Notes: a model not told the origin generated them from the letters alone. A stretch of 34,881 bases of DNA from an uncultured Nitrososphaerota archaeon (GCA_964408285.1 CAYOYV010000013.1:11617-46497); one strand, 5' to 3'; numbered from the stretch's first letter, positions 2,933 through 33,432 are shown. Program-made: numbers and translations.

Positions 2933-3014
2933 GCCATCATTCCTTCCTTCAAGATGAGCGTTCTCGGACCGGCGGGTCCCTTCTTGAACCAATACTTGGG
3001 GTGGGCGAATAGGC

Positions 3015-3026
3015 AAAGTATAAATC
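3015..3026 (+). promoter_or_regulatory. Putative BRE/TATA promoter AAAGTATAAATC
   Basis: Purine-rich BRE plus TATAAA about 30 nt upstream of ATG 3056. The identical 12-mer occurs at 32190..32201. Confidence 0.6.
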
Positions 3027-3055
3027 TCGAAAATCACGAGAAGCCCAGGAAGAAA

Positions 3056-3433
3056 ATGCTACCAAGTTACATGTTGAGGCAGTTGTATGTAAAGGGCAGT
3101 TTGAGGAACCTGAAAGAGGGGGACTCAGTAAAGGCATTTACATTCACTATGAAAAACAGGCTGGGGACTGGGACAATAAAGGGAGAGGTGGGCTTGACGG
3201 TCGACAGCGTTCAGATTCCACTAGAGTCAATAACGATCAAGACACAGGATCAGATATTGAATGCCTCTGAAGCCTTTGTAAGTCCATACAAGTTCAGGGT
3301 TGGAGATACCATCGAATTCATCGTCAACAGAGAAGGAGGGCTTACAGTAGGCCAACACAAGATGCTGATAAGGGTCAATACGATGGAATTCGGAAAGGCA
3401 GAATTCGATGTCGTTGACACTATCAGCCAGTAG
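3056..3433 (+). CDS. Hypothetical beta-sandwich protein, DUF6379 (C-glycoside deglycosidase beta subunit)-like
   Basis: 125 aa from ATG 3056. The pattern LYVKGSLRN...FTFTMKN...LTVD...IP.E.ITI...EGGL..G.H resembles DUF6379-type proteins as I recall them. The upstream ORF extension covers a TATA box, so it is probably not coding. Confidence 0.55.
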   Translation: MLPSYMLRQLYVKGSLRNLKEGDSVKAFTFTMKNRLGTGTIKGEVGLTVDSVQIPLESITIKTQDQILNASEAFVSPYKFRVGDTIEFIVNREGGLTVGQHKMLIRVNTMEFGKAEFDVVDTISQ

Positions 3434-5162: not shown

Positions 5163-5227
5163 CTGCCAATAGCCTCTCGTTCGCCTAATTAAAAGCATAG
5201 TTGGCACGCGGCTCAGTCCGGATCCGA

Positions 5228-6379
5228 TTATGGGGAGAACTCGGTTCTGCCTGACGTAAGCGTCCTTACATATGATTCATAGTTGTGTGCCAATCCAGAG
5301 GAGACAGAAGCAACTATCGCACACCCCATTGCCTCGCTCGCAATGCTTGAAGCCCTCTGGATTCGGCGTGACATCAGTTTGGAAAGTGCTCTCGGCAACA
5401 TTGTGGAGAAAGCCATTCCTCCGCTAATGAGGAGATCGCGATTCGTTCCCACAATTGCCTGCAATTGCCTCACTGAGTTCTTTATCCTCAGAGCAAGGGC
5501 GACAAGAGCCTCTTCCGATTCCCCTCTTTTCCAGCTTGAGGGAATCACCTTGCCAAGGACCCATTTCCCCTTGATGAAGAGCGGAGAGCAGAAGAATTGG
5601 TCCGATGACATTCTACCATCAACAAGAGCGTTAATCCCGACCGTGGACCCGATTCGGATGAGGAAATCATCAGAAATGAAGGCTCCTGAGCCTATCAGAT
5701 CCATCTGGTAGTCCCAACCCCCGACGTATACTTTGGCATCAATGCTGAGCCCTGTGACCCTCGCGGCTTCCGTCGTCACGTTGCCAACTAATGAGCCAAT
5801 CACCTTGGAAGGTGCGACTTTCTCCGGAGATACTAGGTGCTTTGTTATTCTCTCGTTTGCTTCAGAGAGATCCCCACCCCACGTGTGATAGGAGTTCGAG
5901 GGCGTCGACGAGAACGCCATCCCTGTAAGCATGTATGAAAGATATTCATGAGGATTCAGAAAGAAGACGGAGTCGTCATAGAGCCTGGCGTCGAGGCCTT
6001 TCAGTTTGGCAGCCAATGAATCCATGAAAAGGGAATCTCCCTCTTTCTCGTCGCTCGCTGGTCCTCCCCAGCCCAACACTGGGCCTTTTCTGCTTCTTTT
6101 CCTCAATCCGACCAGAGTCGGCGATCTGCCTGATATCGACAATGCAGCGACATTGGCGAGGGGATATTCTCTGAGTAGTTCTCTGAAAAACGATCTTAAG
6201 GATTTCCAAAGCATGCAAGTATTCTTGGGCCTTGAAATCGTCATCTCCAGTTCATGTGCCAATTCAAGTCCGTCTAGAATCACTCCCTTTATCCGACTTG
6301 TCCCGACATTGACCCCGAGTGAGGCAGACAAACCCCTGTATTCCTCCTTCTCGCCCAATCCACAGGATGGACCTGCCAT
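5228..6379 (-). CDS. FGGY-family carbohydrate kinase-like protein (short and divergent)
   Basis: LGVNVGTSRIKG (FGGY phosphate-1 motif), EYLSYMLTG, VG.VT.EAA..TGL, GGWD, ISGG, GCAIVA. Alternative start TTG 6331. Confidence 0.72.
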   Translation of the reverse strand: MAGPSCGLGEKEEYRGLSASLGVNVGTSRIKGVILDGLELAHELEMTISRPKNTCMLWKSLRSFFRELLREYPLANVAALSISGRSPTLVGLRKRSRKGPVLGWGGPASDEKEGDSLFMDSLAAKLKGLDARLYDDSVFFLNPHEYLSYMLTGMAFSSTPSNSYHTWGGDLSEANERITKHLVSPEKVAPSKVIGSLVGNVTTEAARVTGLSIDAKVYVGGWDYQMDLIGSGAFISDDFLIRIGSTVGINALVDGRMSSDQFFCSPLFIKGKWVLGKVIPSSWKRGESEEALVALALRIKNSVRQLQAIVGTNRDLLISGGMAFSTMLPRALSKLMSRRIQRASSIASEAMGCAIVASVSSGLAHNYESYVRTLTSGRTEFSP

Positions 6380-7144: not shown

Positions 7145-7549
7145 TCATCCCAATTCGACCTCGTCCGATTCCCCGACTAGTCTCTTCAAGTACATTCCCT
7201 CAAGTCTGTCGAAGTCTTTGCTGCCATGATTCACAACGCCGCCACCAAAATTGACAGGGATATGGAGAAGTTCATGCAATATGACCTTCTTCTTTGCTTC
7301 CTCGTCCAATGCATCGAATCTCTCGCTCAAAATCTCGATTACATAGTGGGATTCCAAAGAGAGCGCCACCTGTATCGCCTTTGGCATTCCGTGAATCCTA
7401 GCCACTGTGTTCCGAGACCTTGAGCCAGAGCTTCTGACGACCCTCACTCTGCCTGCATCTATGTAGTTCAGCCCAAGCTTCTTGGTTGCCATCTTCACAT
7501 AATCCTGCAACTTCGGATCGAGAACATATTTCAAGGCCACCCGCCTCAC
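7145..7549 (-). CDS. Putative zinc metallopeptidase (small archaeal HExxH family)
   Basis: HELLH zincin motif preceded by YVIEILSERFD and followed by GG...H. 134 aa. Confidence 0.75.
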   Translation of the reverse strand: MRRVALKYVLDPKLQDYVKMATKKLGLNYIDAGRVRVVRSSGSRSRNTVARIHGMPKAIQVALSLESHYVIEILSERFDALDEEAKKKVILHELLHIPVNFGGGVVNHGSKDFDRLEGMYLKRLVGESDEVELG

Positions 7550-7633
7550 AGCAATGCGGTCATTATCCGGGAACTTATAGCTTCGTCAATCTGACCGGGA
7601 CTTCGCTACAAAGTTGGGTCCAGATCTAGTTGC

Positions 7634-7644
7634 ACATTTATATT
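7634..7644 (+). promoter_or_regulatory. Putative TATA box (TTTATA) of the methyltransferase operon
   Basis: CATTTATATTC about 30 nt upstream of ATG 7672. Confidence 0.5.
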
Positions 7645-7671
7645 CCCCTTGTGCCGCAAGAGGAGCAAAGG

Positions 7672-8310
7672 ATGTCAGGATCTGTACTTGAGGGGATTAG
7701 GAATTCGATAGTCGATCTGAAATTCGAGGAAGAGAAAGCAAGCGTCCAACAAGCGCTCTCAGCGGGCGTTTCTCCGTTGAAGATCCTCGATGAGATGGCC
7801 AAGGCAATGGAAATCGTTGGACAGAAATTCGAAGCCTCGGAATATTTCCTTTCGGAATTGATTGTTGCGGCGGATGTGATGAAGGAAGGACTAACGGTTC
7901 TAGATCCGCACCTGAAGGGAAAGGAGGTCAGGAAATTGGGAACGGTGGTAATCGGGACAGTGAGGGGCGATCTTCATGAGATAGGCAAGAATGTAGTTGT
8001 GATGTTGCTTGAAGCAGCTGGATTCAAAGTCATAGATTTGGGAGTCGATGTTGCTCCTGAAGCATTTGTTGATGCGGTTGCGAAGAACAACGCGCAAATA
8101 GTGGGGCTTTCAGCATTGCTCACTTCGACAATGAATGAGATGGGCAACATAATTCAATCACTGAAGCGAAGCACGGTTAGAGGCCAGGTCAAAGTAATAA
8201 TCGGGGGCGCGCCTATCACAGAGGAATTCGCCAAAAGGATAGGTGCAGATGCATACGCGAGGGATGCTGTAGAAGGGGTCAGAATCTGCAAGTCCTTCGT
8301 CGGAGCGTAG
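7672..8310 (+). CDS. mtaC: Methyltransferase cognate corrinoid (B12-binding) protein, MtaC/MtbC family
   Basis: Cap domain (VGQKFE..EYFLSEL), DxHxxG cobalt ligand motif GDLHEIGKN, DLGVDV, GLSALLT, IIGGAP. Directly upstream of mtaB. Confidence 0.9.
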   Translation: MSGSVLEGIRNSIVDLKFEEEKASVQQALSAGVSPLKILDEMAKAMEIVGQKFEASEYFLSELIVAADVMKEGLTVLDPHLKGKEVRKLGTVVIGTVRGDLHEIGKNVVVMLLEAAGFKVIDLGVDVAPEAFVDAVAKNNAQIVGLSALLTSTMNEMGNIIQSLKRSTVRGQVKVIIGGAPITEEFAKRIGADAYARDAVEGVRICKSFVGA

Positions 8311-8314
8311 TTCC

Positions 8315-9688
8315 ATGAGGAATGCCTTCAGGAAAGCCGCCCTAGGCGACGAAAGCGAACTCATCTTTGGCAAGGCTAAGTCCGCTGTCCGATATGGCAG
8401 AGGGCTTGTTGCAGGTGACGGGATTGTAATACCTGAGATCAAATTCCATCCGAGAAGGGAATCCGAAGGCGATGTCAAGGCTACGTCGAAGGAATATGTG
8501 GGCATAGTCAAGGATCTCATGGAGAAGGCAGTATGGCTTGGTATGGAACGAGTTCAGATCGAGACGGAGTTCACGGCAAGCGACATTGAGGATCCTGGTT
8601 ACGCAAGGGAAGTCCTAATAGCGCAGACCGATCTCCTCGAAACATACAAAAGCAAATATGGCATCTCATCAGCACTGAGGGTCACAGTTCCGGACATCAG
8701 AAATCCCGCAGGCGGTATGCGGAATGGACCAGAGGTCGAGAAGATGTTTCAGCTTTTCGAGGACGCCTGCGAACATGGAGCGGACCTCGTATCGATGGAA
8801 TCGATTGGAGGAAAGGAGGCGTTCAATCATGCAATTCTCAGACAAGATCTGTCCCAAGCAATATTCTCAGTCGCGGTGTTGGGCTCAAGGGATTCGGAGT
8901 ACATATGGGATCGGATCGTTCGCATCTCAAGAGGCCACAATGTTGTCCCTGCAGGGGATAGCGCCTGCGGATTCGCGAACACTGCGATGGCACTTGCTGG
9001 TGGAACGAGAACCCGAATGATCTCCCATGTGTTCGCGGCAATTATTAGGGCTATTTCCGCTGTGCGTACTCTCGTGCCATTCGAAATGGGTTGCGTTGGT
9101 CCAGGAAAGGACTGTGCATACGAGAACGTGATAGTAAAAGCAATAACAGGATTTCCCATGTCTATGGAAGGAAAGACTGCAGCAAGTGCGCATCCAAGCT
9201 TGGTTGGAAATGTAGCTATGGCCGCGTGCGATCTATGGTCCAATGAGCAGGTTGAGAACGTAACGTTGTATGGGGGGACAGCGCCTCAGGCTTTCTTGGA
9301 GATGCTTTCCTACGATGTAGGGCTTCTCAATGCCTCCATCTTGCATGGGAAACAGAGCACGTTAAGGGATTTGATATGTCAAAGCAACAAGTATCTCGAC
9401 CCTCAAGCGTTGGTACTCTCTCCAGATGTCGCATGGAGATTGGGGAAAGCAATAGCAGATAGTGAACCGAACGATTTCTTCAGGGCGATTGCAGTTGCCG
9501 ACGAGGCTCTTGAGCAGATCGAGCTTGCCTCCGCTAAGATGCGACTGCCTGAAATAGAGATCAAAGCGCTGAGGAGGTTCAGGGAGGAGATTGGAACTAT
9601 CCCTGATGAGAAGCGATTCGTTGAGACTAACATAAGAGAATTATCAAGCAAGCTTCCTAGCTTCAACCCAAGGAATTACCAACTATGA
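8315..9688 (+). CDS. mtaB: Methanol:corrinoid methyltransferase MtaB
   Basis: MtaB motifs ESIGGKE, GDSACGFANTAM, GPGKDCAYE, TG.PMSMEGKT, SLVGN, CDLWSNE. The Glu/Cys/Cys zinc-ligand positions are present. 457 aa. Confidence 0.92.
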   Translation: MRNAFRKAALGDESELIFGKAKSAVRYGRGLVAGDGIVIPEIKFHPRRESEGDVKATSKEYVGIVKDLMEKAVWLGMERVQIETEFTASDIEDPGYAREVLIAQTDLLETYKSKYGISSALRVTVPDIRNPAGGMRNGPEVEKMFQLFEDACEHGADLVSMESIGGKEAFNHAILRQDLSQAIFSVAVLGSRDSEYIWDRIVRISRGHNVVPAGDSACGFANTAMALAGGTRTRMISHVFAAIIRAISAVRTLVPFEMGCVGPGKDCAYENVIVKAITGFPMSMEGKTAASAHPSLVGNVAMAACDLWSNEQVENVTLYGGTAPQAFLEMLSYDVGLLNASILHGKQSTLRDLICQSNKYLDPQALVLSPDVAWRLGKAIADSEPNDFFRAIAVADEALEQIELASAKMRLPEIEIKALRRFREEIGTIPDEKRFVETNIRELSSKLPSFNPRNYQL

Positions 9689-9698
9689 GGATAGCACC

Positions 9699-11573
9699 AT
9701 GCCTCTCGTGCTTGCCCGTACGGACGGTGAGGTCATCAGAATAGATGCCAAGGGCTCTCTTCTGGATTCCATCGTCCCAAGGGGAATCGACGTCGATTCC
9801 ATATGTGGGGGCAAGGGCAGGTGCGGCAAATGCATCGTCAAGGTTCTAAGGGGCCAATGCAGCCCCCCGACTCGATCGGAGATCGATGTCCTTGGAACTG
9901 ATGCCTTGAATCAGGGATACAGGCTAGCATGCCAGACATTCCCGAAGGGCGAAGTCGAGCTCCGGATCTTTTCAAGGGGAACCAAGAAGAAGATACTCAC
10001 TTCTGCAAAAAACGTTCTGCTGGACTTGGATCCCCTTGTGAAGGTGGACACATTCGCTCTAGTTCAGCCCAGCATAACAGACCAGAAGGACGACCTGGAG
10101 AGACTAATGTCATCGGCCGGAGCGACAGCAATTGACCATGTTCTCCTCGGAAAGATGCCTGGCATTCTTAGGCAGAGCAACTGGCATGTTGACGTCATCA
10201 TGTTTGAGAAGGAGATAGTGGATGTCCTACATGCCGGGGGAGCAGCTCCACTGGGGGCTGCAGTTGACCTAGGGACGACTACAATCGTCCTTTATCTGAC
10301 GGATCTCCGATCTGGGAATCTTGTTCAGGTTCAGGCGGACTACAACATGCAGGCCGCTCACGGTGAGGATGTGATCTCACGGGTTTCTTATTCGGCAGAG
10401 AATGAGCAGAATCTGAAGCGACTTCAGGAGCTCGCCGTCTCCACGATCAACAAGCTGATTGAGCGTTCAGTACTCGAAAGCGGGGTGAGAAGGGAACAGG
10501 TCTGTGACATTGTCGTTGCGGGGAACACTATCATGTTGAGTTTTCTTCTGGGTGCAAATCCGAAATACATCGCGTCTGCCCCTTACACTCCTCCGTTCTT
10601 GAAAGGGATGAGGGTGAAGGCGGCCGATCTGGGGCTGAATTCAAACAAAGCGGCATATCTCCGCACGCTACCCTGCATAAGTGGCTATGTGGGCGCGGAC
10701 ATCGTCGCGGACATCCTAGTTTCCGGTATGGTAGGAGACGAGGGCCCTGTCATGCTCATTGATGTGGGCACAAACGCGGAAGTCGTCCTCAAGTCATCCG
10801 AAGAGAGGATGTCGACGACCTCGTGTGCTGCTGGCCCTGCTTTCGAGGGAGGGGAGTTGTCCTCAGGAATAAGGGCAATGGCAGGGGCAATAGAAGAAGT
10901 CATGATAGATCCCGACGATTTCACGGTCTATTGGAGGGCAATTGAGGGAGCAGCTCCCAAGGGTATCTGTGGTTCGGGATTGGTTGACGCATTGGCATGG
11001 ATGCTTTTCACCGGGATACTGGAGAAATCCGGAAGAATAGCAAAGAAGGAAACCATGGAATGTGTCCGGGTGGTCAACGGAGAAGCTGCCTTGGTCCTCG
11101 CGGCCGATGAGAACGGACGTCTGATAACCGTTACTCAGAGTGACATCAGGAAGGCCCAGCTGGCAAAGGCAGCCATATATGTGGGTTGCGAAACGCTGGT
11201 GAAGAAAGAAGGAATACGGTTCTCGGACCTCAAGAGAATATACTTGGCTGGCGCATTTGGAAACTACATAGACCAAGTGTCTGGAATGTCAATAGGGATG
11301 TTCCCGGACATTGAACTGACCAGATTCGAGAATATCGGCAATGGTTCTGCCGCGGGAGCGAGAATGGTGCTTCTGTCGAAGAAAGCAGATGAGGAAGCGA
11401 TGCGCGTGGCCCGCCGACTTCTTTCCATCGACATGAATCTTGAATCTGATTTCCAGGAGAGATTCGTGAGAGCAACACTGTATCCGCATCACGATGAAGA
11501 TCTATTCGAGAACGTATGGAGAGGCATCAGGAGGAGAAGGGGCATAAGGCCATTGCCTTCTGAACTCAGATAG
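9699..11573 (+). CDS. ATP-dependent reductive activator of corrinoid proteins (RACE/RACo, ASKHA DUF4445) with N-terminal [2Fe-2S] ferredoxin
   Basis: CGGKGRCGKC...RLACQ [2Fe-2S] motif, DLGTTT, GEDVISR, DVGTNAE, CAAGPAFEG, GICGSG, LAGAFG. Confidence 0.93.
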   Translation: MPLVLARTDGEVIRIDAKGSLLDSIVPRGIDVDSICGGKGRCGKCIVKVLRGQCSPPTRSEIDVLGTDALNQGYRLACQTFPKGEVELRIFSRGTKKKILTSAKNVLLDLDPLVKVDTFALVQPSITDQKDDLERLMSSAGATAIDHVLLGKMPGILRQSNWHVDVIMFEKEIVDVLHAGGAAPLGAAVDLGTTTIVLYLTDLRSGNLVQVQADYNMQAAHGEDVISRVSYSAENEQNLKRLQELAVSTINKLIERSVLESGVRREQVCDIVVAGNTIMLSFLLGANPKYIASAPYTPPFLKGMRVKAADLGLNSNKAAYLRTLPCISGYVGADIVADILVSGMVGDEGPVMLIDVGTNAEVVLKSSEERMSTTSCAAGPAFEGGELSSGIRAMAGAIEEVMIDPDDFTVYWRAIEGAAPKGICGSGLVDALAWMLFTGILEKSGRIAKKETMECVRVVNGEAALVLAADENGRLITVTQSDIRKAQLAKAAIYVGCETLVKKEGIRFSDLKRIYLAGAFGNYIDQVSGMSIGMFPDIELTRFENIGNGSAAGARMVLLSKKADEEAMRVARRLLSIDMNLESDFQERFVRATLYPHHDEDLFENVWRGIRRRRGIRPLPSELR

Positions 11574-11639
11574 GGTCTCACCTATGCCTTGTAAGAAGCC
11601 GAAGCAATTCATATCTATCGGCCTGGGATCAAAGTGCCA

Positions 11640-12737
11640 ATGAATTCGCTGGAGAGATTCATGTTGGCGCTGTCACGGAAGGAGCCCGACAAGGTGCCGA
11701 TATATGAATTGTTAGTGAATCCACCTATCATCAGGAAGATAATTGGTCGTGATTCTCTGCCTGATCTGGTTGATTACCTTGACATGGATGGCTTGACGGC
11801 CGGTGAGGATGTCAGGATGAAGCAAATATCGTCCGGCATCTACCAAGATGAATGGGGCATAACATATAAGGTCGGTTCTGGGGAGGTCACATATCCCATA
11901 AAGGGGCCAGTCAGAACTAGATCCGATTTGGAGAAGATCAAGCGCCCCGATCCTGATGCTGATTACAGATTGGGCACGTTGAGATCATACGTGAAGAGAT
12001 TCGGAGGAAGGAGGGCCGTGGTTTTCCTGGGTCATGATTCCTTTGAATTCTCTCATTATCTGACGGGAGGACTGGACAAGCTTCTGCCCCTTTACTATCG
12101 CGAACCGGAGCTTGCACATGACCTCGCTCAGGTTGTGAGTGACTACAAAGTCAGAGTGATGGAGAGGGCGGCTGAGGAAGGGGCGGACGTTCTCCTCACG
12201 GGCGATGACTACGCCTCGAATTCAGGCCCTCTTATGTCCCCCAAGCATTTTCGCGAGTTCATTCTTCCATATCTCTCGAGGGCAATAGAGGTTGCCCGAA
12301 GGAAGGATGTCCCTTTCATGAAACATACAGATGGAAATATCTGGAGCATTCTGCACATTCTGGTGGACGCAGGAATCGATGCTCTTCATCCTATCGAGCC
12401 ACATGCCGGAATGGACATCGGAGAGGTCAAGAAACGGTTCGGAGACAGGATTTGCCTGGTCGGGAATATTGACTGCACAGCACTGCTCCCCCATGGAACC
12501 AAGGCAGAAGTGGAAGAGGCGGTGAAGGAAACCATAGCCAAGGCAAGCCCTGGCGGCGGGCATATCATCTCATCAAGCAATAGCATTCACCCGGGCGTTG
12601 ATCCGAGGAATTTCAAAGTCATGGTGGAATCGACACGAAGGTACGGAGTCTACCCCTTGGATGAGTCATTTGTTGCGACATATGACAAGAGGGACTACAT
12701 GAATCGATATCGCCTGGGTTGGACGCCGGCCAGATAA
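11640..12737 (+). CDS. Uroporphyrinogen decarboxylase superfamily protein (MtaA/CmuA-like methyltransferase)
   Basis: ER...AL...EPDKVP, DEWG, GDDYA...GPLMSP..FREFILP, HTDGN, LHPIEP, GNID, GGGHIISSSNSIH. Confidence 0.85.
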   Translation: MNSLERFMLALSRKEPDKVPIYELLVNPPIIRKIIGRDSLPDLVDYLDMDGLTAGEDVRMKQISSGIYQDEWGITYKVGSGEVTYPIKGPVRTRSDLEKIKRPDPDADYRLGTLRSYVKRFGGRRAVVFLGHDSFEFSHYLTGGLDKLLPLYYREPELAHDLAQVVSDYKVRVMERAAEEGADVLLTGDDYASNSGPLMSPKHFREFILPYLSRAIEVARRKDVPFMKHTDGNIWSILHILVDAGIDALHPIEPHAGMDIGEVKKRFGDRICLVGNIDCTALLPHGTKAEVEEAVKETIAKASPGGGHIISSSNSIHPGVDPRNFKVMVESTRRYGVYPLDESFVATYDKRDYMNRYRLGWTPAR

Positions 12738-15001: not shown

Positions 15002-15251
15002 ACCGATTGGTGTGTCATTTCCACATAAAAACCTTGGCATGATTCAGTCGATCGCAGGTACGAGAAAGGCGCAGATCTACTTGGGACGCGACTGTCGTTC
15101 CGCTAGCTAGCCGCACACCGTTGAATTGGAATGGCATTTGGCAACCTGGTCATCAGTGGGCATTGCGCCAGCCTCTTGACGTTGCCCATTTCGGCGATTC
15201 GTGCAGACGGAAAGCTAAGACACCGTTCATGAAAGACGGGAAGGGGCCAAG

Positions 15252-15332
15252 ATGTCGGAGAATGTCCTCAGGAAGCAAGTCCTTGAACTTCTTGGACTAT
15301 GGCCCGGAAGAAGAGAAAACAAGGTCTATTGA
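15252..15332 (+). CDS. Possible small protein (26 aa), MSENVLRKQVLELLGLWPGRRENKVY
   Basis: ATG with a purine-rich GGGAAGGGG just upstream, amphipathic-helix-like sequence, followed by a GC-rich potential hairpin. No homology support. Confidence 0.25.
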   Translation: MSENVLRKQVLELLGLWPGRRENKVY

Positions 15333-15465
15333 GCGGGGTCCCGATCACAGGAGGGATCCGACTTCAATTGCTTGGATTTCTCCCTGTCGACGGTCCATGC
15401 CTATCAGCATTCCCTATCAGCGCTCTCCGAAATCCAGCAAATCCCCTTCGATTGATCCACTAGCT

Positions 15466-15711
15466 TCAAATATCATGCTCATGTTCAGCGATCAAGCCCC
15501 TTCTTTCTAGGTTTCTAAGGGCCGCGTCGACTTCCCACAGATGGCATCCTAATATCCTCCAAATGGATGAAACCGGCATTTTTCCATTCTCTTTGAGAAG
15601 GCGCATTATCTCTTCCTCTAAGTCGATTGGGTCCCTGAAGATTACCAGATCCCAGTGAGGACCGAAGACTATCAGGGAATCCCTTACCTCCTCTGGCTCT
15701 TGGTCCTCCAT
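15466..15711 (-). CDS. Small winged helix-turn-helix protein
   Basis: EEIMRLLKENGKMPVSSIWRILGC....VDAALRNLERRGLI is a wHTH pattern. TTATAT box about 25 nt upstream of ATG 15711. Confidence 0.65.
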   Translation of the reverse strand: MEDQEPEEVRDSLIVFGPHWDLVIFRDPIDLEEEIMRLLKENGKMPVSSIWRILGCHLWEVDAALRNLERRGLIAEHEHDI

Positions 15712-15875
15712 TTGATGGATCAATTCCCTTCTACGATATAAGCGATTTGAGATAGACTACCCTTTTTCCTGAAGAGAACCGTCTGCCAGTGCTTGCCTTC
15801 CTGTACATTGGATGGAGTGACCACGCCAGTCTTATAAACAGAACCACGAGAGTGAATCATCCGGAGGAATGCACT

Positions 15876-16592
15876 GTGAAGGCGCTTCTCTTGGCGGGTG
15901 GGTATGCAACCAGATTGATGCCTTTGAGCAGAGATACCCCAAAGCCACTTCTGACAATAAAAGGAAGAGCGGCGATGGACTACGTCCTAGATTCACTTAA
16001 GGGCATACAGATTGATGGCGTTTTCGTTCTCACTAATAGAAGATTCGCGGAAAGTTTCGAATCGTGGAGGAAAGAGAGAAGGATCAATGTCGAGTTCCTC
16101 GTGGAGGATAGCTCTGCCGAAAGTGAAAAGCCGGGTGCGATAGCTGCAATCCTGAACGCAATAAGAGCCTTGGGTGATGACGACTATATCGTGATCGCTG
16201 GCGATAACGTCTTCACAATGAGCCTGGGCGACATGTACAGATATTTCAAGTCAAGGGACGCACCGGTAGTCGGCATATATGATGTTCGGGAAACCAAACT
16301 AGCAACGATGTACTCCACAGTTGAAACTGATGAGAAAGGCAGGATCGTAAAGATGCTCGAGAAGCCAAAGCATCCTGAAGGTACTCTGATTGTCACTTGC
16401 ATCTACATCCTGCCCAAGGGAATCGGTGAAATGTTGCAGCAATATCTGGCATCTGGTGGCCACAAGGATAGTCCAGGTTACTTCGTAGAATGGTTATCGA
16501 AAAGGACCGTTGTCTACGGATATCCTGTAACCGGCAAGTGGTTCGATGTGGGGACAACAGAAGCCCTTGAGCGAGCACAAAAGGAGATCTAG
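15876..16592 (+). CDS. Sugar-1-phosphate nucleotidyltransferase (NTP_transferase family)
   Basis: LLAGGYATRL.PL....PKPLL, AGDN, EKP, WFDVGT. GTG start with GGAGG SD and TTATAAA upstream. Confidence 0.92.
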   Translation: MKALLLAGGYATRLMPLSRDTPKPLLTIKGRAAMDYVLDSLKGIQIDGVFVLTNRRFAESFESWRKERRINVEFLVEDSSAESEKPGAIAAILNAIRALGDDDYIVIAGDNVFTMSLGDMYRYFKSRDAPVVGIYDVRETKLATMYSTVETDEKGRIVKMLEKPKHPEGTLIVTCIYILPKGIGEMLQQYLASGGHKDSPGYFVEWLSKRTVVYGYPVTGKWFDVGTTEALERAQKEI

Positions 16593-26976: not shown

Positions 26977-29900
26977 TCAGGAACTCGGTGGCCGAAGGAT
27001 CTGTGCACCAGAGACTGGTACACACACGATTACGGATTCCTCCAGCTTGGGCCTTTGATGGTAATACTCCCTTAGAAGTGCTTGCTTGAGCCTTGTAACG
27101 GCGCTGTTTTCAACAAGGATCCCAACGCATCCTCCGAGACCGGCGCCCAATATCTGAGCCCCCAATACCCCTTCTATTGACCGAGATATTTCAACTATCT
27201 TGTCTACCTGTTGGGACCCACAATCATAGAATCCATGAAGGAGAATGGGGTCTGCTTCGTTGAAGCGATTTGGAGTTTGAATTGAGGCTCTAGCCATCAT
27301 CTCTTCTATGGATTCCTTTCTTACTGAACCATCGTATCGAACGGCATTTCCGCCCCGGAATGTCACTTTTCTGTCCCCGCCATGCGATATCCTCATGAGC
27401 CTGCCGAATGATTCTATGCTCGCCTCCAGAATCGTTGGGGCAACGCGGCTTCTTGCACACTCCGATATACCAAAAACTGCTATGTCTCGTATCCTGTAGC
27501 CTTTCATCGGTTCAGAATGCTCCTTGAAAAGTCTCTCAAGTCTTGCGTGCTCCTCCGGCAATTCCAGATACAGCTCTTCCCTTGTCATGCTTTCTGGTAG
27601 ACTCAAGAGGATCCCGTATAGCTGCTTCAGAGATATTCCGAGGCTGGTTGGATCCAGATCCCTGAAGTATTTGATCCGATCGGCCAACAAGGGATACATT
27701 TTCCTGATCAGCATTAGAGCTATCTCATAGCAAGCTACCCTCTGATTGAACGTGTCCTTGGCGCCTACCATCTTGGCCGCTTTGACTAGACTGTCACAGA
27801 CAACTATCTTGTACCCATCAGGAAACTTGTAATGGGATACACTGAGCGGGAAGAATCCTATTTGTGATATATGCCCCTTCTTTCCAAACATCATTGCAGC
27901 GTGATCCCCCATGCCGCCTCTTGTTCCGACATACCACTCAGAAATCCCGGCCCACTCTACTAGCCTTCTCTTACTGATTCTGAGTCGATTGACGGCAACA
28001 AGGGTCAACCAAATTGCCACGACAAGAGCTGACGATGAGGATAATCCGGCCGCCTTTAGAATATCTCCGAACACTACGACATTCGCTCCCCTGAGGTCCT
28101 TCCTGAGAATGCCGGCTTCGGTTTTATACATATTCACAGCGAATCCTATGGTCCTGAGGTAGTCCATCCATGTCCTCGTCTTTCTTTTCTCCGAGAGCTC
28201 CCCTGTCAAAGTTCTCCACTCCTCCTCAGTCAGTTTCCTTGAAGGAAGCTCCTCGCCGATCCTGAATTCGCCGGGAGAATACGACATGTCGACATCCCAA
28301 GCTCGAACTGTTGAGTCCCTTCTTGGCTCAGCTATCATAATGATCTCTCGAGGGATTGCGATTGGATTCACATGACAACCTCTATGGTCCACATGTCGCC
28401 CCATCAAGTTGACTCTGCCAGGAGTCCTGATTAGATAGACGCTCGCATCCCCTCCGAGGATCTTTTTCGATTTTCTGAGGACTGAAAGATAGATCTTCCT
28501 GCGTTCAGCTGCAATCTCAGTCTCTCCATATATTTCCTCCATCAACGTTTGACCCTTTCCCTTGTCCTCGAAGGTCTCGATCCAACTCGATATCTTGGAT
28601 TCCGCCGGCACATCGACTGACTCTAGGTTCGGGTAGCCAGATTCAATCAGCTCCCCGTTCAGCTCCTCATAGCTTATTCGCGAGATCTCTGATTCCTGAC
28701 TCTGGACTATGCAGTTGGTGACGACAGATCTTTCAACAACAGCGAAGGGTCCCAGATTCGATCGGGCGATGGTGCAATCCAGTAGGTCGGAGAATGACTC
28801 CAATCTGAGTGGGGGGATCAGTGCAACTCTCCCTCTCAAGACTGAATTCGGCTTCGGCTCGAAGACCAGATCCGAATATTCCGCCAGGCTATCTATATCA
28901 GAAAGGCGCCTTCTTTTCAACTCGTCCCCCAATACCGATACGAATCGCTTGATGCCACCCAATTCATTTGTCAATCTCATCAGTGAATTGAGGAAAGATG
29001 AGACCTCGGCAGTCGACCGAATGATTGCATTTGGGTGAACCGATACTCCGAATATCTTCTCAAGGGCCTGGATTCCGACTTCGTCCAAGGGCACAAGCTT
29101 CATCGTTTCTTGCGAGAACTCCGAGCCTTTGGGAATGGCCCCTGTAGCTGTGCTATACCTCGCTACATCCTTGCAGACCAAGGCGCAATCCTGAACCTTG
29201 GCGCCTTCTCCGACGCTCGAATCTCGTATGATCGCCCTAGAGACAAACGAATCTCTGCCTATTCTCAAGGAATTGTCGGGGCTCGCAATGATGATAGAGT
29301 CAACCAGAGAGGCACCTGATTCCAAAAAGATCCTTCCCTTCAGATGGATGTCTCCTGAAAGGGACACACCCGGTTGGATTCCATCGATATCGAATCCTTT
29401 GCCGAACCCGATCCATGAACCATCTCTCACAATCACACCTCTCTTACGTAGGGAATCTATGACTTGGTGATTCTTCTGAAAAGAGAATTGCCTAAGATCT
29501 GTTCTGGAGTCCATGCCTTTGGCCGAGCCCCTCTGCAGTCTAAATACGCCCACCCTACCGCTGTTTCTCTTTACCACGTTCGCAACTTCCGGGAGGTAGT
29601 ATTCGTCCTTTTCATGTCTCTCAAGCACGTATGCGTCTTCGCGCTCCGAGGCAACCCGTTCGCACCTAGTGATCCTCGTCAGGTCACCTCTCGAGAATTT
29701 AAGCCCGGATATCTCAAGGGTTTCGCCATGCCCCATTGCCATGAACTTCACATTGGGCACGACAGTCCGGATACCGCCAGATTCGAGGACTCTTCCATAG
29801 TTCCGGCTGTCTAGGTCCCTTATTGTTTTCAGAAACACCTCCCTCGAGACAACCATGCAGAGAACATTCCTTTCTCGTATCGAATTCAGATACTCTGCAC

Positions 29901-30906
29901 TGAATCGAAAACCACCAACATCTATCTCACTTTTTCTCAAGCGATCTTCCTTGGAGAGCCCGATCTGGCCTTGCTCGATTATTCCGAGAAAGGTTCCACT
30001 TTCCTCTCCAAAAAACACATATTCATCCGGATTCAATCTTAGTTTGAGTCTCTCAATGGCTTCCGTCGTCAACTCAATACAGTCCTGTTCGATGGAGCCA
30101 ACCACCGGGTGATGGATGTTCATTTTTCCCTCGCGCCGAATCAGATCGAGATCATCCTTCTCGAGAAGGAGATATCGCGTCCATCCCGGCTTCGATTGAG
30201 CTACTCGGGGTAGTTCCAAGGCAATCAACTCTCCAGTTCTGATCTTGTCATTTAGCAATCGCTGAATATCAGTGACTTCGTTAGCATTCGGCCCTGCCCT
30301 TATGATGCGTTCGATCATGTAAGGCATCCTGACAATCCGACCATGCTCAAATGCACTATCCTCTGTTACTGAGACCAGAGTCACATCGTTGTTGGAACTG
30401 AAGTGATACGAGATTATCTGACTGAGCTCATCAGAACCTATGGTGGGCAGGTCCGATCCAATTATCAGTACAGCCTTGGCTGACGGGTCAGAGGCCAATA
30501 TCTGTTTAGCTTCTTCTGCGACAATAGTGGCACCTGTGCCGGCATCCTTTCCTTCTAGGTTGTTGTAGAATATCCTAACATCCTCCCGGGAGGCTAGAAC
30601 CTCCTTTATGTCATGCTGTATTCTGAATTTCATCTTGGCAATGCGGTCCAGAGCTCTTGGATCGTTGAAATCAATCCTATCTCCGATCCTCACAAGTATT
30701 CTTGACGACAACGGCTCCACGTTTTCAATTACGAGTTCAAGCAGAGTCTTTCCGGACTGAAAATCCCTGAGACATGGCTTCGCTAGATAGTCAAGAAGGG
30801 GATCGTCAATATTCCAATCCGGATTGATTCTTGTGCCGAAGCCAGCAGCTGGAATGACAGCTATGACCGATGTCTTGTAATGCGCCGGTCCCGAATCCAT
30901 GGACAC
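26977..30906 (-). CDS. Multidomain fusion: GlmU-like nucleotidyltransferase + left-handed beta-helix repeats + galactokinase-like GHMP kinase
   Basis: N-terminal AAGFGTR..K, GTG, GSDLP, HGRIVR, GIIE, EYYLPEV. Central hexapeptide-like repeats. C-terminal PGRVNLMGRHVDH, AGLSSSSA, GGMGDH, FG.LM..SH, GAGLGGC. 1309 aa uninterrupted. Confidence 0.85.
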   Translation of the reverse strand: MSMDSGPAHYKTSVIAVIPAAGFGTRINPDWNIDDPLLDYLAKPCLRDFQSGKTLLELVIENVEPLSSRILVRIGDRIDFNDPRALDRIAKMKFRIQHDIKEVLASREDVRIFYNNLEGKDAGTGATIVAEEAKQILASDPSAKAVLIIGSDLPTIGSDELSQIISYHFSSNNDVTLVSVTEDSAFEHGRIVRMPYMIERIIRAGPNANEVTDIQRLLNDKIRTGELIALELPRVAQSKPGWTRYLLLEKDDLDLIRREGKMNIHHPVVGSIEQDCIELTTEAIERLKLRLNPDEYVFFGEESGTFLGIIEQGQIGLSKEDRLRKSEIDVGGFRFSAEYLNSIRERNVLCMVVSREVFLKTIRDLDSRNYGRVLESGGIRTVVPNVKFMAMGHGETLEISGLKFSRGDLTRITRCERVASEREDAYVLERHEKDEYYLPEVANVVKRNSGRVGVFRLQRGSAKGMDSRTDLRQFSFQKNHQVIDSLRKRGVIVRDGSWIGFGKGFDIDGIQPGVSLSGDIHLKGRIFLESGASLVDSIIIASPDNSLRIGRDSFVSRAIIRDSSVGEGAKVQDCALVCKDVARYSTATGAIPKGSEFSQETMKLVPLDEVGIQALEKIFGVSVHPNAIIRSTAEVSSFLNSLMRLTNELGGIKRFVSVLGDELKRRRLSDIDSLAEYSDLVFEPKPNSVLRGRVALIPPLRLESFSDLLDCTIARSNLGPFAVVERSVVTNCIVQSQESEISRISYEELNGELIESGYPNLESVDVPAESKISSWIETFEDKGKGQTLMEEIYGETEIAAERRKIYLSVLRKSKKILGGDASVYLIRTPGRVNLMGRHVDHRGCHVNPIAIPREIIMIAEPRRDSTVRAWDVDMSYSPGEFRIGEELPSRKLTEEEWRTLTGELSEKRKTRTWMDYLRTIGFAVNMYKTEAGILRKDLRGANVVVFGDILKAAGLSSSSALVVAIWLTLVAVNRLRISKRRLVEWAGISEWYVGTRGGMGDHAAMMFGKKGHISQIGFFPLSVSHYKFPDGYKIVVCDSLVKAAKMVGAKDTFNQRVACYEIALMLIRKMYPLLADRIKYFRDLDPTSLGISLKQLYGILLSLPESMTREELYLELPEEHARLERLFKEHSEPMKGYRIRDIAVFGISECARSRVAPTILEASIESFGRLMRISHGGDRKVTFRGGNAVRYDGSVRKESIEEMMARASIQTPNRFNEADPILLHGFYDCGSQQVDKIVEISRSIEGVLGAQILGAGLGGCVGILVENSAVTRLKQALLREYYHQRPKLEESVIVCVPVSGAQILRPPSS

Positions 30907-31071: not shown

Positions 31072-32109
31072 TTGAAGACCTCGATTAGATTCGGCTTGGC
31101 AGGAACAGGGGTAGGGGCTGAATTCGTGGCCAAGGCATATGAGATGATTGAGAAGGATGGCAGAGCTCAGCTTGTGACCGTCTTCGGCGTGCCATCGCAA
31201 CTTGCAAGCGACTTCGCATCTCGCTATGGCATCCCCTCTTGGTACGACGACTACGATAGGATGATTGAGACCCAAGATATCGACGCGATTGTCATCTCCA
31301 CGCCGCACTTCCTCCATTATCAGATGGCCATCAAGGCTATGCAAAGAGGAATCCACGTATTAGTGGACAAGCCGATCTCGATCGCTCTCAGGGAGGCAGA
31401 CGAGATGATCGCCTTTGCGCAGAAGAGGGGGCTGAAGCTGGGCGTAAACTTCCAGAACAGATTTGACGATTCAGCAATAAGAGTCAAAAGGGCGGCAGAA
31501 AATGGACGGATGGGAAAACTTCTTCTCGGTGCAGCTCAGATACACTGGTATAGGGATCAGGAGTATTACGACAAGAGCGAATGGAGAGGGAAATGGGCCA
31601 CAGAAGGCGGAGGAGTTCTCATAAATCAGGGGATTCACACCATAGATCTCTTGGCCTGGATAATGGGGCCTCTTGACGAGATTTGGGGAAGGATAAACAC
31701 CTTGGCTCACAAGATAGAGGTCGAGGATCTGGCAGTAGGATGTCTAAGGTTCAGGAACGGAGCCCTTGGCGTTATTCAGGCAAGCACGGCTACCTATCCG
31801 GGATTCCCCACTGCGCTTGAGATATATGGCACTGACGGTTGCGCTAAGATCGAGGGCGCTTCGCTCAAATACCTCATGCTTGACCGAAAGGAAGAGCCCG
31901 TTCAGCAAAAGGAGAGCGAACTAGCTTCATGGGCAAGGCCAGAGGCCGTTCCAGCGCTCAATCACTCAAGGGTCTTGAAAGACTTCTTCTCCGCTATATT
32001 GGAAGACCGGAAGCCCATGATTGACGGAGTGGAAGGAAGGAAATCGCTGGAGATAATAACTAGTATATATGAATCAAGCAAGACTGGCGAGAGCATATCA
32101 GTGGCTTAG
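31072..32109 (+). CDS. Gfo/Idh/MocA family oxidoreductase
   Basis: GLAGTG, TPHFLH, HVLVDKP, FQNRF, WRG.W..EGGGVLINQGIHTIDL, EVED. Confidence 0.93.
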   Translation: MKTSIRFGLAGTGVGAEFVAKAYEMIEKDGRAQLVTVFGVPSQLASDFASRYGIPSWYDDYDRMIETQDIDAIVISTPHFLHYQMAIKAMQRGIHVLVDKPISIALREADEMIAFAQKRGLKLGVNFQNRFDDSAIRVKRAAENGRMGKLLLGAAQIHWYRDQEYYDKSEWRGKWATEGGGVLINQGIHTIDLLAWIMGPLDEIWGRINTLAHKIEVEDLAVGCLRFRNGALGVIQASTATYPGFPTALEIYGTDGCAKIEGASLKYLMLDRKEEPVQQKESELASWARPEAVPALNHSRVLKDFFSAILEDRKPMIDGVEGRKSLEIITSIYESSKTGESISVA

Positions 32110-32189
32110 AGCAAGTCACGGATGGAACGTAGCGGCTACTATCTTGCTCCCTTGCAGGGGATTGGGTCAGGAGATGCTTCAGATGAGCT

Positions 32190-32201
32190 AAAGTATAAAT
32201 C
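32190..32201 (+). promoter_or_regulatory. Putative BRE/TATA promoter AAAGTATAAATC (leaderless transcript likely)
   Basis: TATAAA about 25 nt upstream of ATG 32224. Identical to the element at 3015..3026. Confidence 0.6.
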
Positions 32202-32223
32202 GCTACTGGCTTGCGAATCATCC

Positions 32224-33432
32224 ATGGCTAAGTTGGCTGTAAAAGGAGGTAAGCCAGTCAGGAAGAAGGCTTTCCCTTCTTGGCCGATTTTCGATGGAAG
32301 GGAGAAGAAGGCTCTACTGGATGTTCTGAACAGCGGGAAATGGGGGATAGGTGGAAAGAGGAACGAGGAGTTCGCGGCGAAGTTTGCCGCATCTCATCAA
32401 GCGAAATTCGGTGTGACTTGTACTAGCGGAACGACAGGCCTGATCCTTGCACTGAAGGCGGCAGGTATAGGCTACGGCGATGAGGTCATAGTCCCTCCCT
32501 ACACCTTCATTGCGACGGCGACTGCAGCACTGTCTGTCGATGCCATCCCCGTATTCGTTGATATAGATGCCAGGACATACAACTTAGATGCTGACCTTCT
32601 AGAACAAGCAATCACCCCGAAGACGAAAGCGATAATCCCCGTTCACATAGGAGGAGGACCGGCTCATATGGACAAGATCATGAATGTGGCGACCAATCAC
32701 AACCTGTTCGTCATTGAGGACGCATGCCAAGCCCATGGTGCAGAATGGAAAGGTCGAAAGGTGGGAGCTATAGGTCACATGGGGGTCTTCAGCTTTCAAT
32801 CGAGCAAGAACATAAACGCAGGAGAAGGCGGGATTGTTCTCAGCAACGACGAAGATCTTGCGGAGAAGGTCTGGTCCTATATGAATGTCGGCAGATCTAG
32901 AAAAGGAGAGTGGTATGAGCATGCCGTGTTGGGATGGAACTACAGGATGTCTGAGTTCCAAGGGGGCCTTCTGATTGCCCAGCTCACCAGGATGGAGAGG
33001 TTCATGAGAATCAGGGAGAGAAATGCTGAGTATTTGGCCAAGAGGATCGGTCAGATACAGGGCATCGAGCACGTTGGATCCTATCCGGAGACGACCAGAC
33101 ATGCCTATCATCTGTTCCTTATGAGGTATGATAGCGCCCAGTTCGGTGGACTTCCACGTCAGAAATTCATAGCGGCCTTGAACGCAGAGGGCATTCCTGT
33201 TAGTCCGGGCTATGCGACTGGACCCCTATACAGAATGAGGGCCATTGCTGAATACCGAATCCCGGGATTAGTTCTCGACTACTCTAGGACTTTCCAACCA
33301 GTATGCGAACGCGCCTGTAACGAAGAGGGCATGTGGCTCGGTCAAACCGTCTTGCTAGGCAGCAAGAAGGACATGGATGATATCGCAGACGCCATCCTAA
33401 AGGTAAAGGACAACGTTTCAGAATTGCTCTAG
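32224..33432 (+). CDS. DegT/DnrJ/EryC1/StrS PLP aminotransferase (RifK/BtrR-like subgroup)
   Basis: LAVKGG.PVR...FPSWP, SGT, PPYTFIATA, EDACQAHG, SFQSSKN (PLP lysine), GEGG, GWNYRMSEFQ. Confidence 0.93.
   Translation: MAKLAVKGGKPVRKKAFPSWPIFDGREKKALLDVLNSGKWGIGGKRNEEFAAKFAASHQAKFGVTCTSGTTGLILALKAAGIGYGDEVIVPPYTFIATATAALSVDAIPVFVDIDARTYNLDADLLEQAITPKTKAIIPVHIGGGPAHMDKIMNVATNHNLFVIEDACQAHGAEWKGRKVGAIGHMGVFSFQSSKNINAGEGGIVLSNDEDLAEKVWSYMNVGRSRKGEWYEHAVLGWNYRMSEFQGGLLIAQLTRMERFMRIRERNAEYLAKRIGQIQGIEHVGSYPETTRHAYHLFLMRYDSAQFGGLPRQKFIAALNAEGIPVSPGYATGPLYRMRAIAEYRIPGLVLDYSRTFQPVCERACNEEGMWLGQTVLLGSKKDMDDIADAILKVKDNVSELL

Follow-up and report, generated by a model that had tools for sequence, protein, structure and literature searches.

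The stretch of DNA analysed here, a 34,881-nucleotide segment from an uncultured Nitrososphaerota archaeon (GCA_964408285.1 CAYOYV010000013.1:11617-46497; hereafter the window), carries on its minus strand a giant open reading frame (ORF) in which a GlmU-like sugar-1-phosphate nucleotidyltransferase is joined to a galactokinase-like GHMP kinase. A nucleotide-sugar dehydrogenase gene lies on one side of it, and a divergently transcribed oxidoreductase–aminotransferase pair on the other. An earlier reading of the same DNA (the original prediction) had proposed that this gene encodes a sugar salvage enzyme built as one polypeptide. The ORF listing and translation bear out its starting point, a single intact frame of 1309 amino acids (aa) composed of fused enzyme modules, and the three motifs that it quoted occur in the translation at residues 20-26 (AAGFGTR), 188-193 (HGRIVR) and 435-438 (EYYL). 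In the other frames that overlap the gene, the longest ORFs reach 90-116 aa. Since a public protein, P0002 (1307 aa, 8 member sequences, 8.5-kb contig), is 99% identical over its full length and begins at Met3, the real start is probably the ATG at 30900 rather than the GTG six nucleotides upstream. The host genome of the window is a 1.82-Mb draft of 46 contigs, 93.7% complete.

The protein's C-terminal portion, residues 791-1309, has the full complement of a GHMP kinase of the GalK/GALK2 type. Three Pfam domains score above their gathering cut-offs: GalKase_gal_bdg at residues 819-860 (42.0 vs. 23.1 bits), GHMP_kinases_N at 924-1009 (41.2 vs. 22.3 bits), and GHMP_kinases_C at 1232-1282 (24.8 vs. 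21 bits); the Pfam matches of the whole ORF are restricted to this part. NCBIfam galactokinase models match with E values of up to 1.4e-36. Among solved structures, phmmer returns human N-acetylgalactosamine (GalNAc) kinase 2a2c as the best match for the kinase (E 3.4e-29). A predicted model of residues 791-1309, with a predicted local distance difference test score (pLDDT) of 90.7 and a predicted template modelling score (pTM) of 0.89, leads Foldseek to the same enzyme first (2a2c/2a2d; E 1.2e-26, template modelling score 0.79, 24% identity), followed by yeast Gal3p/Gal1p and then human GALK1. The complete galactokinase-like domain that had been claimed for the protein is thus present. Its motifs comprise R831 (in PGRVN), the sugar site G836-R-H-V-D-H-R-G-C844, GLSSSSA at 954-960, D1001, and GAGLGGC at 1254-1260. 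R831 and D1001 align to the catalytic Arg and Asp of GALK2, and we take them to correspond to the catalytic Arg (PGRVN) and the catalytic base of GalK. Both residues, together with GLSSSS and GAGLGG, are kept in 23/23 kinase relatives. To our knowledge, every characterised kinase of the GalK branch phosphorylates the anomeric hydroxyl of a free sugar.

The kinship of the N-terminal module (residues 1-760; hereafter the N-module) emerges at the level of profile and fold. A single-sequence search of solved structures matches its N-terminal part to GlmU weakly (E 1.4e-6), whereas a profile of 24 relatives aligns to Streptococcus pneumoniae GlmU with an E value of 3.3e-20. This alignment pairs SDLP...GyGRiVR of the module with GDTP...GYGRIVR of GlmU, and EYYLPE...D.R and the ensuing first beta-helix turns with GEYYITD...N.R and the GlmU beta-helix. 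An AlphaFold model of residues 1-800, built with 24 relatives (pLDDT 83.4, pTM 0.84), places a Rossmann-like nucleotidyltransferase in front of a left-handed beta-helix (LbH). When this model is submitted to Foldseek, the listed ranks 1-37 are all GlmU-type entries (best E 1.6e-14), after which come GMPPA/B (7d72), ADP-glucose pyrophosphorylase, eukaryotic UAP and S. tokodaii ST0452. The GlmU-like pyrophosphorylase named in the original prediction is therefore faint in a single sequence and solid by profile and fold. Conservation within the module, counted over only those sequences that cover a given alignment column, follows the same pattern of motifs: G22 (18/18), G24 (17/18), R26 (18/18), K43 (20/21), G123 and G125 (20/20 each), T124 (19/20), D152 (21/21), and, at 22/22 throughout, G189-R190, E311-Q312, N347, E435-Y436 and D466. 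The conserved positions align with the pyrophosphorylase motifs of GlmU as well as with the canonical transferases of shorter bacterial fusions described below. The G-x-G-T-R element, the Lys, the Mg-binding Asp (GD.P), the G-R, the N, the E-Y-Y and the D/N presumably represent the GlmU pyrophosphorylase signature. A loss of catalytic residues in one of the two domains, which the original prediction had named, together with a lack of activity, as a reason to abandon it, is not what the alignments reveal: The residues aligned with GlmU and GalK motifs are conserved.

Compared with GlmU, the N-module is strongly elaborated (Table 1). The large alpha/beta insertion at residues ~204-344 contains invariant residues of its own (F306, E311-Q312 and G316) and sits, by alignment, at the same site as a ~95-residue insertion of the short bacterial fusions. 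The second insertion, at ~370-430, is missing in relatives of 1108-1168 aa and appears as a gap in the matches of three genomes of the host's family (G001, G003, G005). Both of the beta-helix stretches that had been noticed in the sequence exist. The first (LbH1) is modelled, over about residues 498-590, at pLDDT 55-75 only, and the second (LbH2), over ~682-750, at ~90. LbH1 is deleted in P0005, P0006, L001 and L002. Because LbH1 and the second insertion are both absent from relatives of 1108-1168 aa, they constitute non-essential parts. The helical bundle that separates the two beta-helices retains E616, G650 and L663 in all 24 sequences; LbH2 gives weak profile matches to the C-terminal domain of GlmU (4aa7, 3twd, E 2e-4), and it is at the end of LbH2 that the split N-modules of relatives terminate. 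An acetyltransferase role for the beta-helix, of the GlmU or WbpD kind, was considered and found unsupported, with LbH1 poorly modelled and deleted in relatives; the profile alignment over the GlmU beta-helix spans residues 201-334 only, and no acetyltransferase catalytic residue could be mapped.

The fusion gene is intact and conserved. A search for the same architecture across genomes, which the original prediction had proposed as a check, finds it again in four of the five other genomes of the host's family (f1), where the N-module runs into the kinase in one open frame without stops. These fused frames measure 1340 aa (G002), 1153 aa (G001), 1136 aa (G003) and 890 aa (G005, apparently cut by a contig end), and the fifth genome, 57% complete, gives a weak match only. 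Thirteen public metagenome runs from sediment or freshwater sediment contain near-identical DNA, and no RNA run is on record among them. In 4 runs from 4 other studies, contigs cover 30, 30, 30 and 29 of 30 bins with no indels and no joints, and in each of these runs one contig bridges the module boundary near 28537. The 24 single-letter differences in those contigs are synonymous in 10 cases and non-synonymous in 14, and none introduces a stop. Homologues that are consistently split, by assembly or by frameshift, had been named as the other possible refutation; the family genomes and the contigs of four studies show the opposite.

The kinase belongs to a widespread subfamily that comes in several architectures. 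A search of a species-genome collection with two peptide patterns yielded at least 600 stretches, 586 of which were confirmed, so that the subfamily is present in at least 586 species genomes; the architecture and neighbour counts that follow refer to the best 80 of at least 586 confirmed kinase loci. Among the 78 kinases classified in them, 44 are stand-alone ORFs (some of which may be cut by contig ends), 25 carry a canonical NTP_transferase fused in front (proteins of 736-1026 aa), and 9, the window's included, are linked to an N-module. The matches of a length-limited protein search (51 in all) were again for the most part fusions, 773-1091 aa long, that combine Pfam PF00483/PF12804 with GHMP domains and are hosted by Planctomycetota, other bacteria and one Asgard metagenome-assembled genome (MAG); in the protein atlas, clusters of such NTP_transferase–kinase fusions carry automatic names only. 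The N-module itself is rare. Among 1.84 billion, 11 cluster representatives match it at E <= 1e-30 and 49 at E <= 1e-3. Within the window's phylum it occurs in 12/301 sampled genomes, all in two families of one order, namely the window's own genome and 4/5 others in f1 and 7/17 genomes in the sister family f4, and it is absent from the other 278 genomes searched in that sample. Those relatives that bear names are MAGs filed under Candidatus Brockarchaeota, Thermoproteota or Nitrososphaerota.

How the two modules are connected varies between lineages. In the 7/17 genomes of f4 each has a gene of its own, and the two genes are neighbours, with the kinase (531-580 aa) ahead of the N-module (786-795 aa); in two Latescibacterota loci (L035, L024) they are again separate genes, in the order N-module then kinase. 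That one pair of modules occurs in three distinct arrangements is classic evidence of a joint function. A covalent link between them is optional rather than essential, as the separate, reversely ordered genes of the sister family demonstrate, and by the same opposite order the split relatives are not a frameshifted version of the fusion. In two f4 genomes (G008:C14 and G024:C7; loci L090 and L089), the kinase and N-module ORFs share one frame of 1323-1327 codons with a single TGA in between; in other genomes of the same genus the two ORFs lie more than one stop apart or in different frames, and the single-TGA arrangement is probably a chance adjacency. A quick kinase-domain tree (IQ-TREE short search, support by the Shimodaira–Hasegawa-like approximate likelihood-ratio test [SH-aLRT] only, midpoint drawing) groups 7 archaeal N-module-linked kinases in one clade (SH-aLRT 95), outside which the two Latescibacterota N-module-linked kinases fall, and places 25 short fusions within a clade of 29 rows (SH-aLRT 99). 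Within the archaeal clade, this tree gives no order of fused and split forms.

The neighbouring genes that had drawn attention to the locus, a nucleotide-sugar dehydrogenase and a divergent oxidoreductase–aminotransferase pair, were all confirmed (Table 1). In a tblastn search of window proteins against the 80 loci (E <= 1e-8), homologues of the nucleoside diphosphate (NDP)-sugar dehydrogenase were detected in nine, of which L001, L005-7 and L024 are N-module loci and L036 and L065-67 are others. With the window added, the dehydrogenase stands beside the N-module at 6/9 loci (window, L001, L005, L006, L007, L024), so that kinase, N-module and dehydrogenase are linked across lineages. In the f4 loci L005-L007 it follows the N-module on the same strand, directly so in L005, and in L024 the kinase is followed by a dehydrogenase and a class-III aminotransferase. 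Its best equivalog-type NCBIfam match, below cut-off, is the archaeal uridine diphosphate (UDP)-N-acetylmannosamine (ManNAc) dehydrogenase. The window's dehydrogenase is also unusually long and scores 144.9 bits against a subfamily cut-off of 189.8 bits, with the GGYCLPKD motif kept. The NAGPA-type gene abutting it has homologues in 4 of the 80 loci (L001, L002, L004, L016), beside the fusion in the first three; an apparently cytoplasmic NAGPA homologue is here coupled to a nucleotide-sugar enzyme. MscS-like and LysE-like genes also lie on this side, nearer to the fusion than the dehydrogenase. On the divergent side, an AP_endonuc_2 TIM-barrel gene accompanies the GFO oxidoreductase and DegT aminotransferase genes. 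GFO homologues occur in 19/80 loci, among them all six archaeal N-module loci, and the best NCBIfam matches of the window's GFO protein, below their cut-offs, are inositol 2-dehydrogenase and archaeal UDP-N-acetylglucosamine (GlcNAc) 3-dehydrogenase (E 1.4e-34). Farther off in the window are a canonical NTP_transferase (15789..16592, 11 kb away), a GalE-like epimerase, a GHL10 gene, a second AP_endonuc_2 gene and a lyxose-isomerase-like cupin.

Table 1. Features of the fusion gene and its surroundings, in window coordinates
Feature	Position	Strand	Remarks and basis
Whole ORF	26977..30906	(-)	1309 aa from GTG 30906, 1307 aa from ATG 30900; stop 26977-26979
GlmU-type sugar-1-phosphate nucleotidyltransferase core, residues 1-490	29437..30906	(-)	Model pLDDT mostly >85; ends in long helix 468-488
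Large alpha/beta insertion in core, residues ~204-344 (~140 residues)	29875..30297	(-)	Alignments and secondary structure of model
Second insertion (beta-hairpins), residues ~370-430	29617..29799	(-)	Directly before EYYLPE motif; alignment and model
LbH1, first left-handed beta-helix-like stretch, residues ~491-598	29113..29436	(-)	Profile aligns to GlmU 201-334
Helical bundle, residues ~599-680 (modelled 599-677)	28867..29112	(-)	LE..FGV motif
LbH2, second beta-helix, residues ~681-760 (modelled 682-750)	28627..28866	(-)	pLDDT ~90; end of N-module
Linker, residues ~761-790	28537..28626	(-)	Low confidence, pLDDT 43-53; gene split point in L005-7, L024, L035
Predicted GHMP anomeric sugar kinase, GalK/GALK2 type, residues 791-1309	26980..28536	(-)	Pfam, fold, alignments
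NAGPA-type phosphodiester glycosidase, 517 aa	21795..23348	(+)	No obvious signal peptide; stop abuts dehydrogenase start
NDP-sugar dehydrogenase-like gene, 632 aa	23349..25247	(+)	GGYCLPKD cysteine motif; 1.7 kb from fusion
GFO/IDH/MocA oxidoreductase	31072..32109	(+)	Divergent from fusion; domain scan
DegT-family aminotransferase	32122..33432	(+)	Divergent from fusion; domain scan
B12-binding protein	7630-8310	(+)	
MtaB	8315-9688	(+)	Pfam E 5e-156
RACo reductive activator	9699-11573	(+)	
URO-D/MtaA-like protein	11634-12737	(+)	

Across the kinase subfamily at large, clustering of 725 neighbouring ORFs revealed NagA in 19 loci, class-III aminotransferases in 15, heparinase II/III-like proteins in 15 and NagB-like proteins in 5. 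The NagA neighbour family passes its NCBIfam cut-off (256.8 vs. 225.65 bits). An assignment of these NagA neighbours to the bacterial fusions was rejected by the tree and the architecture table, which place 18/19 of the loci with stand-alone kinases. A stand-alone kinase with NagA, GFO and class-III aminotransferase genes recurs in L009, L010, L019, L023 and 15 more loci, mainly of Planctomycetota, and a heparinase II/III-like protein of ~990 aa belongs to the same set, which may represent an amino-sugar or glycosaminoglycan utilisation locus.

Several other parts of the window deserve a brief record. A methanol-type corrinoid methyltransferase set occupies 7630-12737 (+); Brockarchaeota reportedly practise non-methanogenic methylotrophy, which this set would fit. 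A 159-aa ORF at 2954-3433 (+) matches both the HMG-CoA_red_N and the C-glycoside deglycosidase beta-subunit families and adjoins a 594-aa alpha/beta hydrolase, acetyl xylan esterase-like, at 3423-5207 (-); together with the window's GFO and AP_endonuc_2 genes, the two recall oxidative glycoside-cleavage systems. A 134-aa protein at 7145-7549 (-) contains a "putative phage metallopeptidase" domain, and the ORFs at 5228-6379 (-) (383 aa) and 15121-15510 (+) (129 aa) match no Pfam family at E <= 0.001.

The account that we favour, and consider the probable one without great assurance, is that the fusion is a two-step anomeric kinase/pyrophosphorylase, analogous to the bacterial fucose-activating enzyme Fkp and assembled from other families, which probably acts on an N-acetylhexosamine-like sugar. 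The kinase at 791-1309 would use ATP to phosphorylate a free sugar at its anomeric hydroxyl; the GlmU-type module at 1-760 would then condense the resulting sugar-1-phosphate with a nucleoside triphosphate, probably uridine triphosphate (UTP), releasing pyrophosphate and yielding an NDP-sugar. The claim of the original prediction that such an enzyme was built here from parts other than those of Fkp is supported by the domain mapping, by both structure predictions and by the lack of a PF07959 match. An N-acetylhexosamine or a close derivative is the most likely substrate class, and it and UTP are guessed from the GalNAc-kinase and GlmU affinities of the two halves, the UDP-ManNAc-dehydrogenase-like partner, and the NagA context of the kinase subfamily. 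An NDP-sugar product fits the dehydrogenase that adjoins the N-module at 6/9 loci: The product may well be handed to this nearby enzyme for oxidation at C6, giving an NDP-hexosaminuronic acid. Speculatively, it might travel onward to the GFO oxidoreductase and DegT aminotransferase, a pair reminiscent of those that build amino sugars in Wbp and archaeal acetamido-sugar pathways, and emerge as a 3-amino derivative; equally speculatively, the NAGPA-type enzyme could supply the free sugar.

A number of observations weigh against this account and temper its strength. On the kinase side, all galactokinase equivalogs tried (TIGR00131, NF003472 and others) fail, the best of them with 126.3 vs. 226.65 bits and the rest lower. 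Where GalK has the signature GEHxDY, relatives have G[R/V/S]H[VI]DHRGG and the window protein has GRHVDHRGC, and the position of the signature Glu is taken by R in 19, V in 2, S in 2 and Glu in none of 23 kinase sequences. Given this altered sugar signature, GalNAc or galactose is not to be assumed as the substrate. R837 was considered as a mark of a carboxylate substrate (a uronic acid or N-acetylmuramic acid), an idea given up as a firm claim since R stands there in only 19/23 sequences. On the nucleotidyltransferase side, the N-module gives no match to Pfam NTP_transferase (PF00483/PF12804) at E <= 1. The NCBIfam GlmU models reach it at E 8e-15 or worse, and all of the GlmU cut-offs (367-725 bits) are failed, the best model scoring 54.3 against 450 bits. 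Thr25 of the G-x-G-T-R element is variable (T 2, V 3, A 4, L 1, F 7, S 1 of 18), and an equivalent of the sugar-binding Glu of GlmU could not be established, the invariant E311-Q312 being a candidate only. Context adds further reservations. The host genome also encodes five canonical NTP_transferases. In 18/19 NagA loci the kinase is not fused but stands alone and belongs to a clade dominated by Planctomycetota, so that the NagA neighbours are informative only for the kinase subfamily at large. In the two Latescibacterota loci (L035:1602-5819, a 1406-aa ORF, and L024:1-2589) the N-module is fused to a canonical NTP_transf_3 with an LbH_EIF2B-like unit; if this second unit serves the kinase product, the N-module does something else. 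Finally, a scan of 30 window ORFs turned up no glycosyltransferase, so that nothing nearby makes it evident that the product is used in biosynthesis.

The last point leads to the strongest competing reading, in which the chemistry is the same and the role catabolic: The NDP-sugar would be epimerised or oxidised into central metabolism, in a Leloir-like entry. The archaeal loci are indeed rich in sugar-converting genes, as opposed to glycosyltransferases, with GFO, the xylose-isomerase-like AP_endonuc_2, the lyxose-isomerase-like cupin, GHL10 and the esterase in the window and UxaC-like and YdjC genes in L002, and the bacterial members of the kinase subfamily keep company with NagA (19/80 loci), NagB-like proteins, heparinases and aminotransferases at the frequencies given above. 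Such bacterial neighbours, however, stand mostly beside stand-alone kinases of another clade, and the steadiest neighbour of the N-module is the NDP-sugar 6-dehydrogenase (6/9 loci), an enzyme typical of uronic-acid precursor synthesis. The presumed likeness of GFO and DegT to Wbp and archaeal acetamido-sugar pairs, and the appearance of archaeal UDP-GlcNAc 3-dehydrogenase among the best, though sub-threshold, matches of GFO, also point away from catabolism. We regard a catabolic role as unlikely. It does bear on one word of the original prediction: The kinase and nucleotidyltransferase parts of the proposed "salvage enzyme" stand, and salvage is only one of two possible roles, the Leloir-like entry being the other.

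Less likely still is a second alternative, in which the kinase product is no substrate of the N-module and the module is either a transferase for something else, with the NDP-sugar made by another enzyme, or a paralogue with a regulatory or scaffolding task, on the model of GMPPA beside GMPPB. Its strong divergence (no Pfam NTP_transferase match, two large insertions, a variable signature Thr), the presence of GMPPA/GMPPB among its fold matches (7d72), the additional canonical NTP_transf_3 and beta-helix unit in L035 and L024, and the five other NTP_transferase genes of the genome, one of them at 15789..16592 in the window, would all be in keeping with such a role. Yet the residues of the GlmU-site motifs are conserved at 18/18 to 22/22, and a dead paralogue would not be expected to keep them. 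In 25/78 cases kinases of this subfamily are fused to canonical nucleotidyltransferases, whose position is the one that the N-module takes, and N-module and kinase stay together through three arrangements. On balance this alternative appears decidedly improbable. An artefact, whether a chimeric assembly or a frameshifted or decaying gene pair, is very unlikely: The draft state of the host genome in 46 contigs and the two-gene relatives of the sister family might suggest one, but they are set against 1309 codons without a stop, the 99% identity to P0002 with its 8 member sequences, the contigs of four other studies that lack indels, joints and new stops, three fused frames that are complete in other genomes of the family (1136-1340 aa), and the reversed gene order of the split relatives.

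Returning to the two-step kinase/pyrophosphorylase, one may extend it, tentatively and with more doubt than belief, into an undescribed, laterally mobile three-enzyme route, held by one Thermoproteota order and by Latescibacterota, that turns a scavenged amino sugar into an NDP-hexosaminuronic acid. This joint proposal would combine an anomeric kinase, a giant GlmU-derived nucleotidyltransferase and a divergent NDP-sugar 6-dehydrogenase. As part of the same proposal, the insertions of the N-module and its helical/beta-helix spacer might confer a new specificity, allostery or channelling absent from GlmU and Fkp, and the cytoplasmic NAGPA-type glycosidase might supply the free sugar by cleaving sugar-1-phosphodiesters. 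If the favoured account is true, the fusion would be the first archaeal sugar-salvage or activation enzyme of such a kind; it would give a function to a kinase subfamily found in at least 586 species genomes and to a rare, remodelled nucleotidyltransferase module, and would offer a pointer to how acidic amino sugars originate in an uncultured lineage related to Brockarchaeota. Practical interest follows as well. One-pot synthesis of nucleotide sugars and the metabolic labelling of glycans rely heavily on natural fusions of the Fkp kind. Should the enzyme prove active on N-acetylhexosamines or their derivatives, a natural fusion of GALK2-type and GlmU-type parts would be a new biocatalyst. For the same nucleotide-sugar purpose, chimeras of GalK and a uridyltransferase have been engineered, and, according to that study, an enzyme that naturally turns xylose into UDP-xylose is not known (PMC11267548).

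Among known systems, the closest in logic is Fkp/FKP. A structural account of FKP describes an alpha/beta pyrophosphorylase, a three-turn beta-helix domain, a three-helix linker and a GHMP kinase, assembled into a tetramer (PMC11982464). The window protein has the same order of parts in one polypeptide and would obey the same logic from free sugar to sugar-1-phosphate to NDP-sugar. In contrast to Fkp, its transferase is GlmU-like, its kinase is GalK/GALK2-like rather than fucokinase-like, and its host is an archaeon; it also exceeds Fkp by 360 residues, has a second beta-helix and carries two insertions in its transferase. Pfam PF07959, the fucose pyrophosphorylase family, has no match in the window protein, which thereby falls outside Fkp/FKGP, and in the protein atlas PF07959-bearing clusters appear only as distant neighbours at 0.84. 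The sugar of the window enzyme is almost certainly not fucose.

The two halves may also be compared one by one with free-standing enzymes. Human GALK2 works with a separate pyrophosphorylase, AGX1/UAP1, in GalNAc salvage. Its aligned catalytic Arg and Asp and its ATP motifs (2a2c/2a2d) are present in the window kinase; the sugar signature reads GEHIDYCGY in GALK2 and GRHVDHRGC in the window kinase, which furthermore bears an extra insertion of ~40 residues after SH(D/N/G)GDR and is fused to its transferase, whereas GALK2 is separate. In the N-module, as in GlmU and the archaeal ST0452, a nucleotidyltransferase is followed by a long helix and then by a left-handed beta-helix, and the pyrophosphorylase motifs can be aligned. 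The module differs from GlmU by insertions of ~140 and ~60 residues and by a beta-helix that is interrupted by a helical bundle, and the profile alignment stops before the acetyltransferase catalytic region, so that no acetyltransferase function is indicated.

Fusions of comparable design have evolved elsewhere. Zebrafish DrGKUP combines a bacterial-type nucleotidyltransferase with a C-terminal glucuronokinase, and in its description pyrophosphorylase activity could not be demonstrated (PMC3938481). It resembles the window protein in having an N-terminal bacterial-type transferase and a C-terminal GHMP sugar-1-kinase, and differs from it in being eukaryotic and of glucuronokinase type, with a transferase of 260 aa that lacks a beta-helix; it shows that kinase/transferase fusions arose repeatedly. 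The bacterial fusions of 770-1090 aa (P0007-P0051), some of which bear source labels such as "N-acetylgalactosamine kinase" and "NTP transferase domain-containing protein," share the kinase subfamily (35-40% identity, GxHxDHRGG), the domain order and the site of the insertion. They depart from the window protein in their canonical transferase (PF00483/PF12804), in the absence of a beta-helix or helical spacer except for one beta-helix in P0007, and, in the quick tree, in kinases that form a clade separate from the archaeal ones.

The literature searched, mostly without subscription journals, contains no natural fusion of a GlmU-like with a GalK-like enzyme, only Fkp, the zebrafish enzyme and engineered chimeras, and it agrees with the original prediction in offering no characterised archaeal kinase/pyrophosphorylase fusion. 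The window protein is thus Fkp-like in its logic while lying outside the Fkp family, and by curated cut-offs it is neither a galactokinase nor a GlmU. The concept of a bifunctional sugar-activating fusion is a known one; what is new here are the other component families, the strongly remodelled transferase, and the archaeal host.

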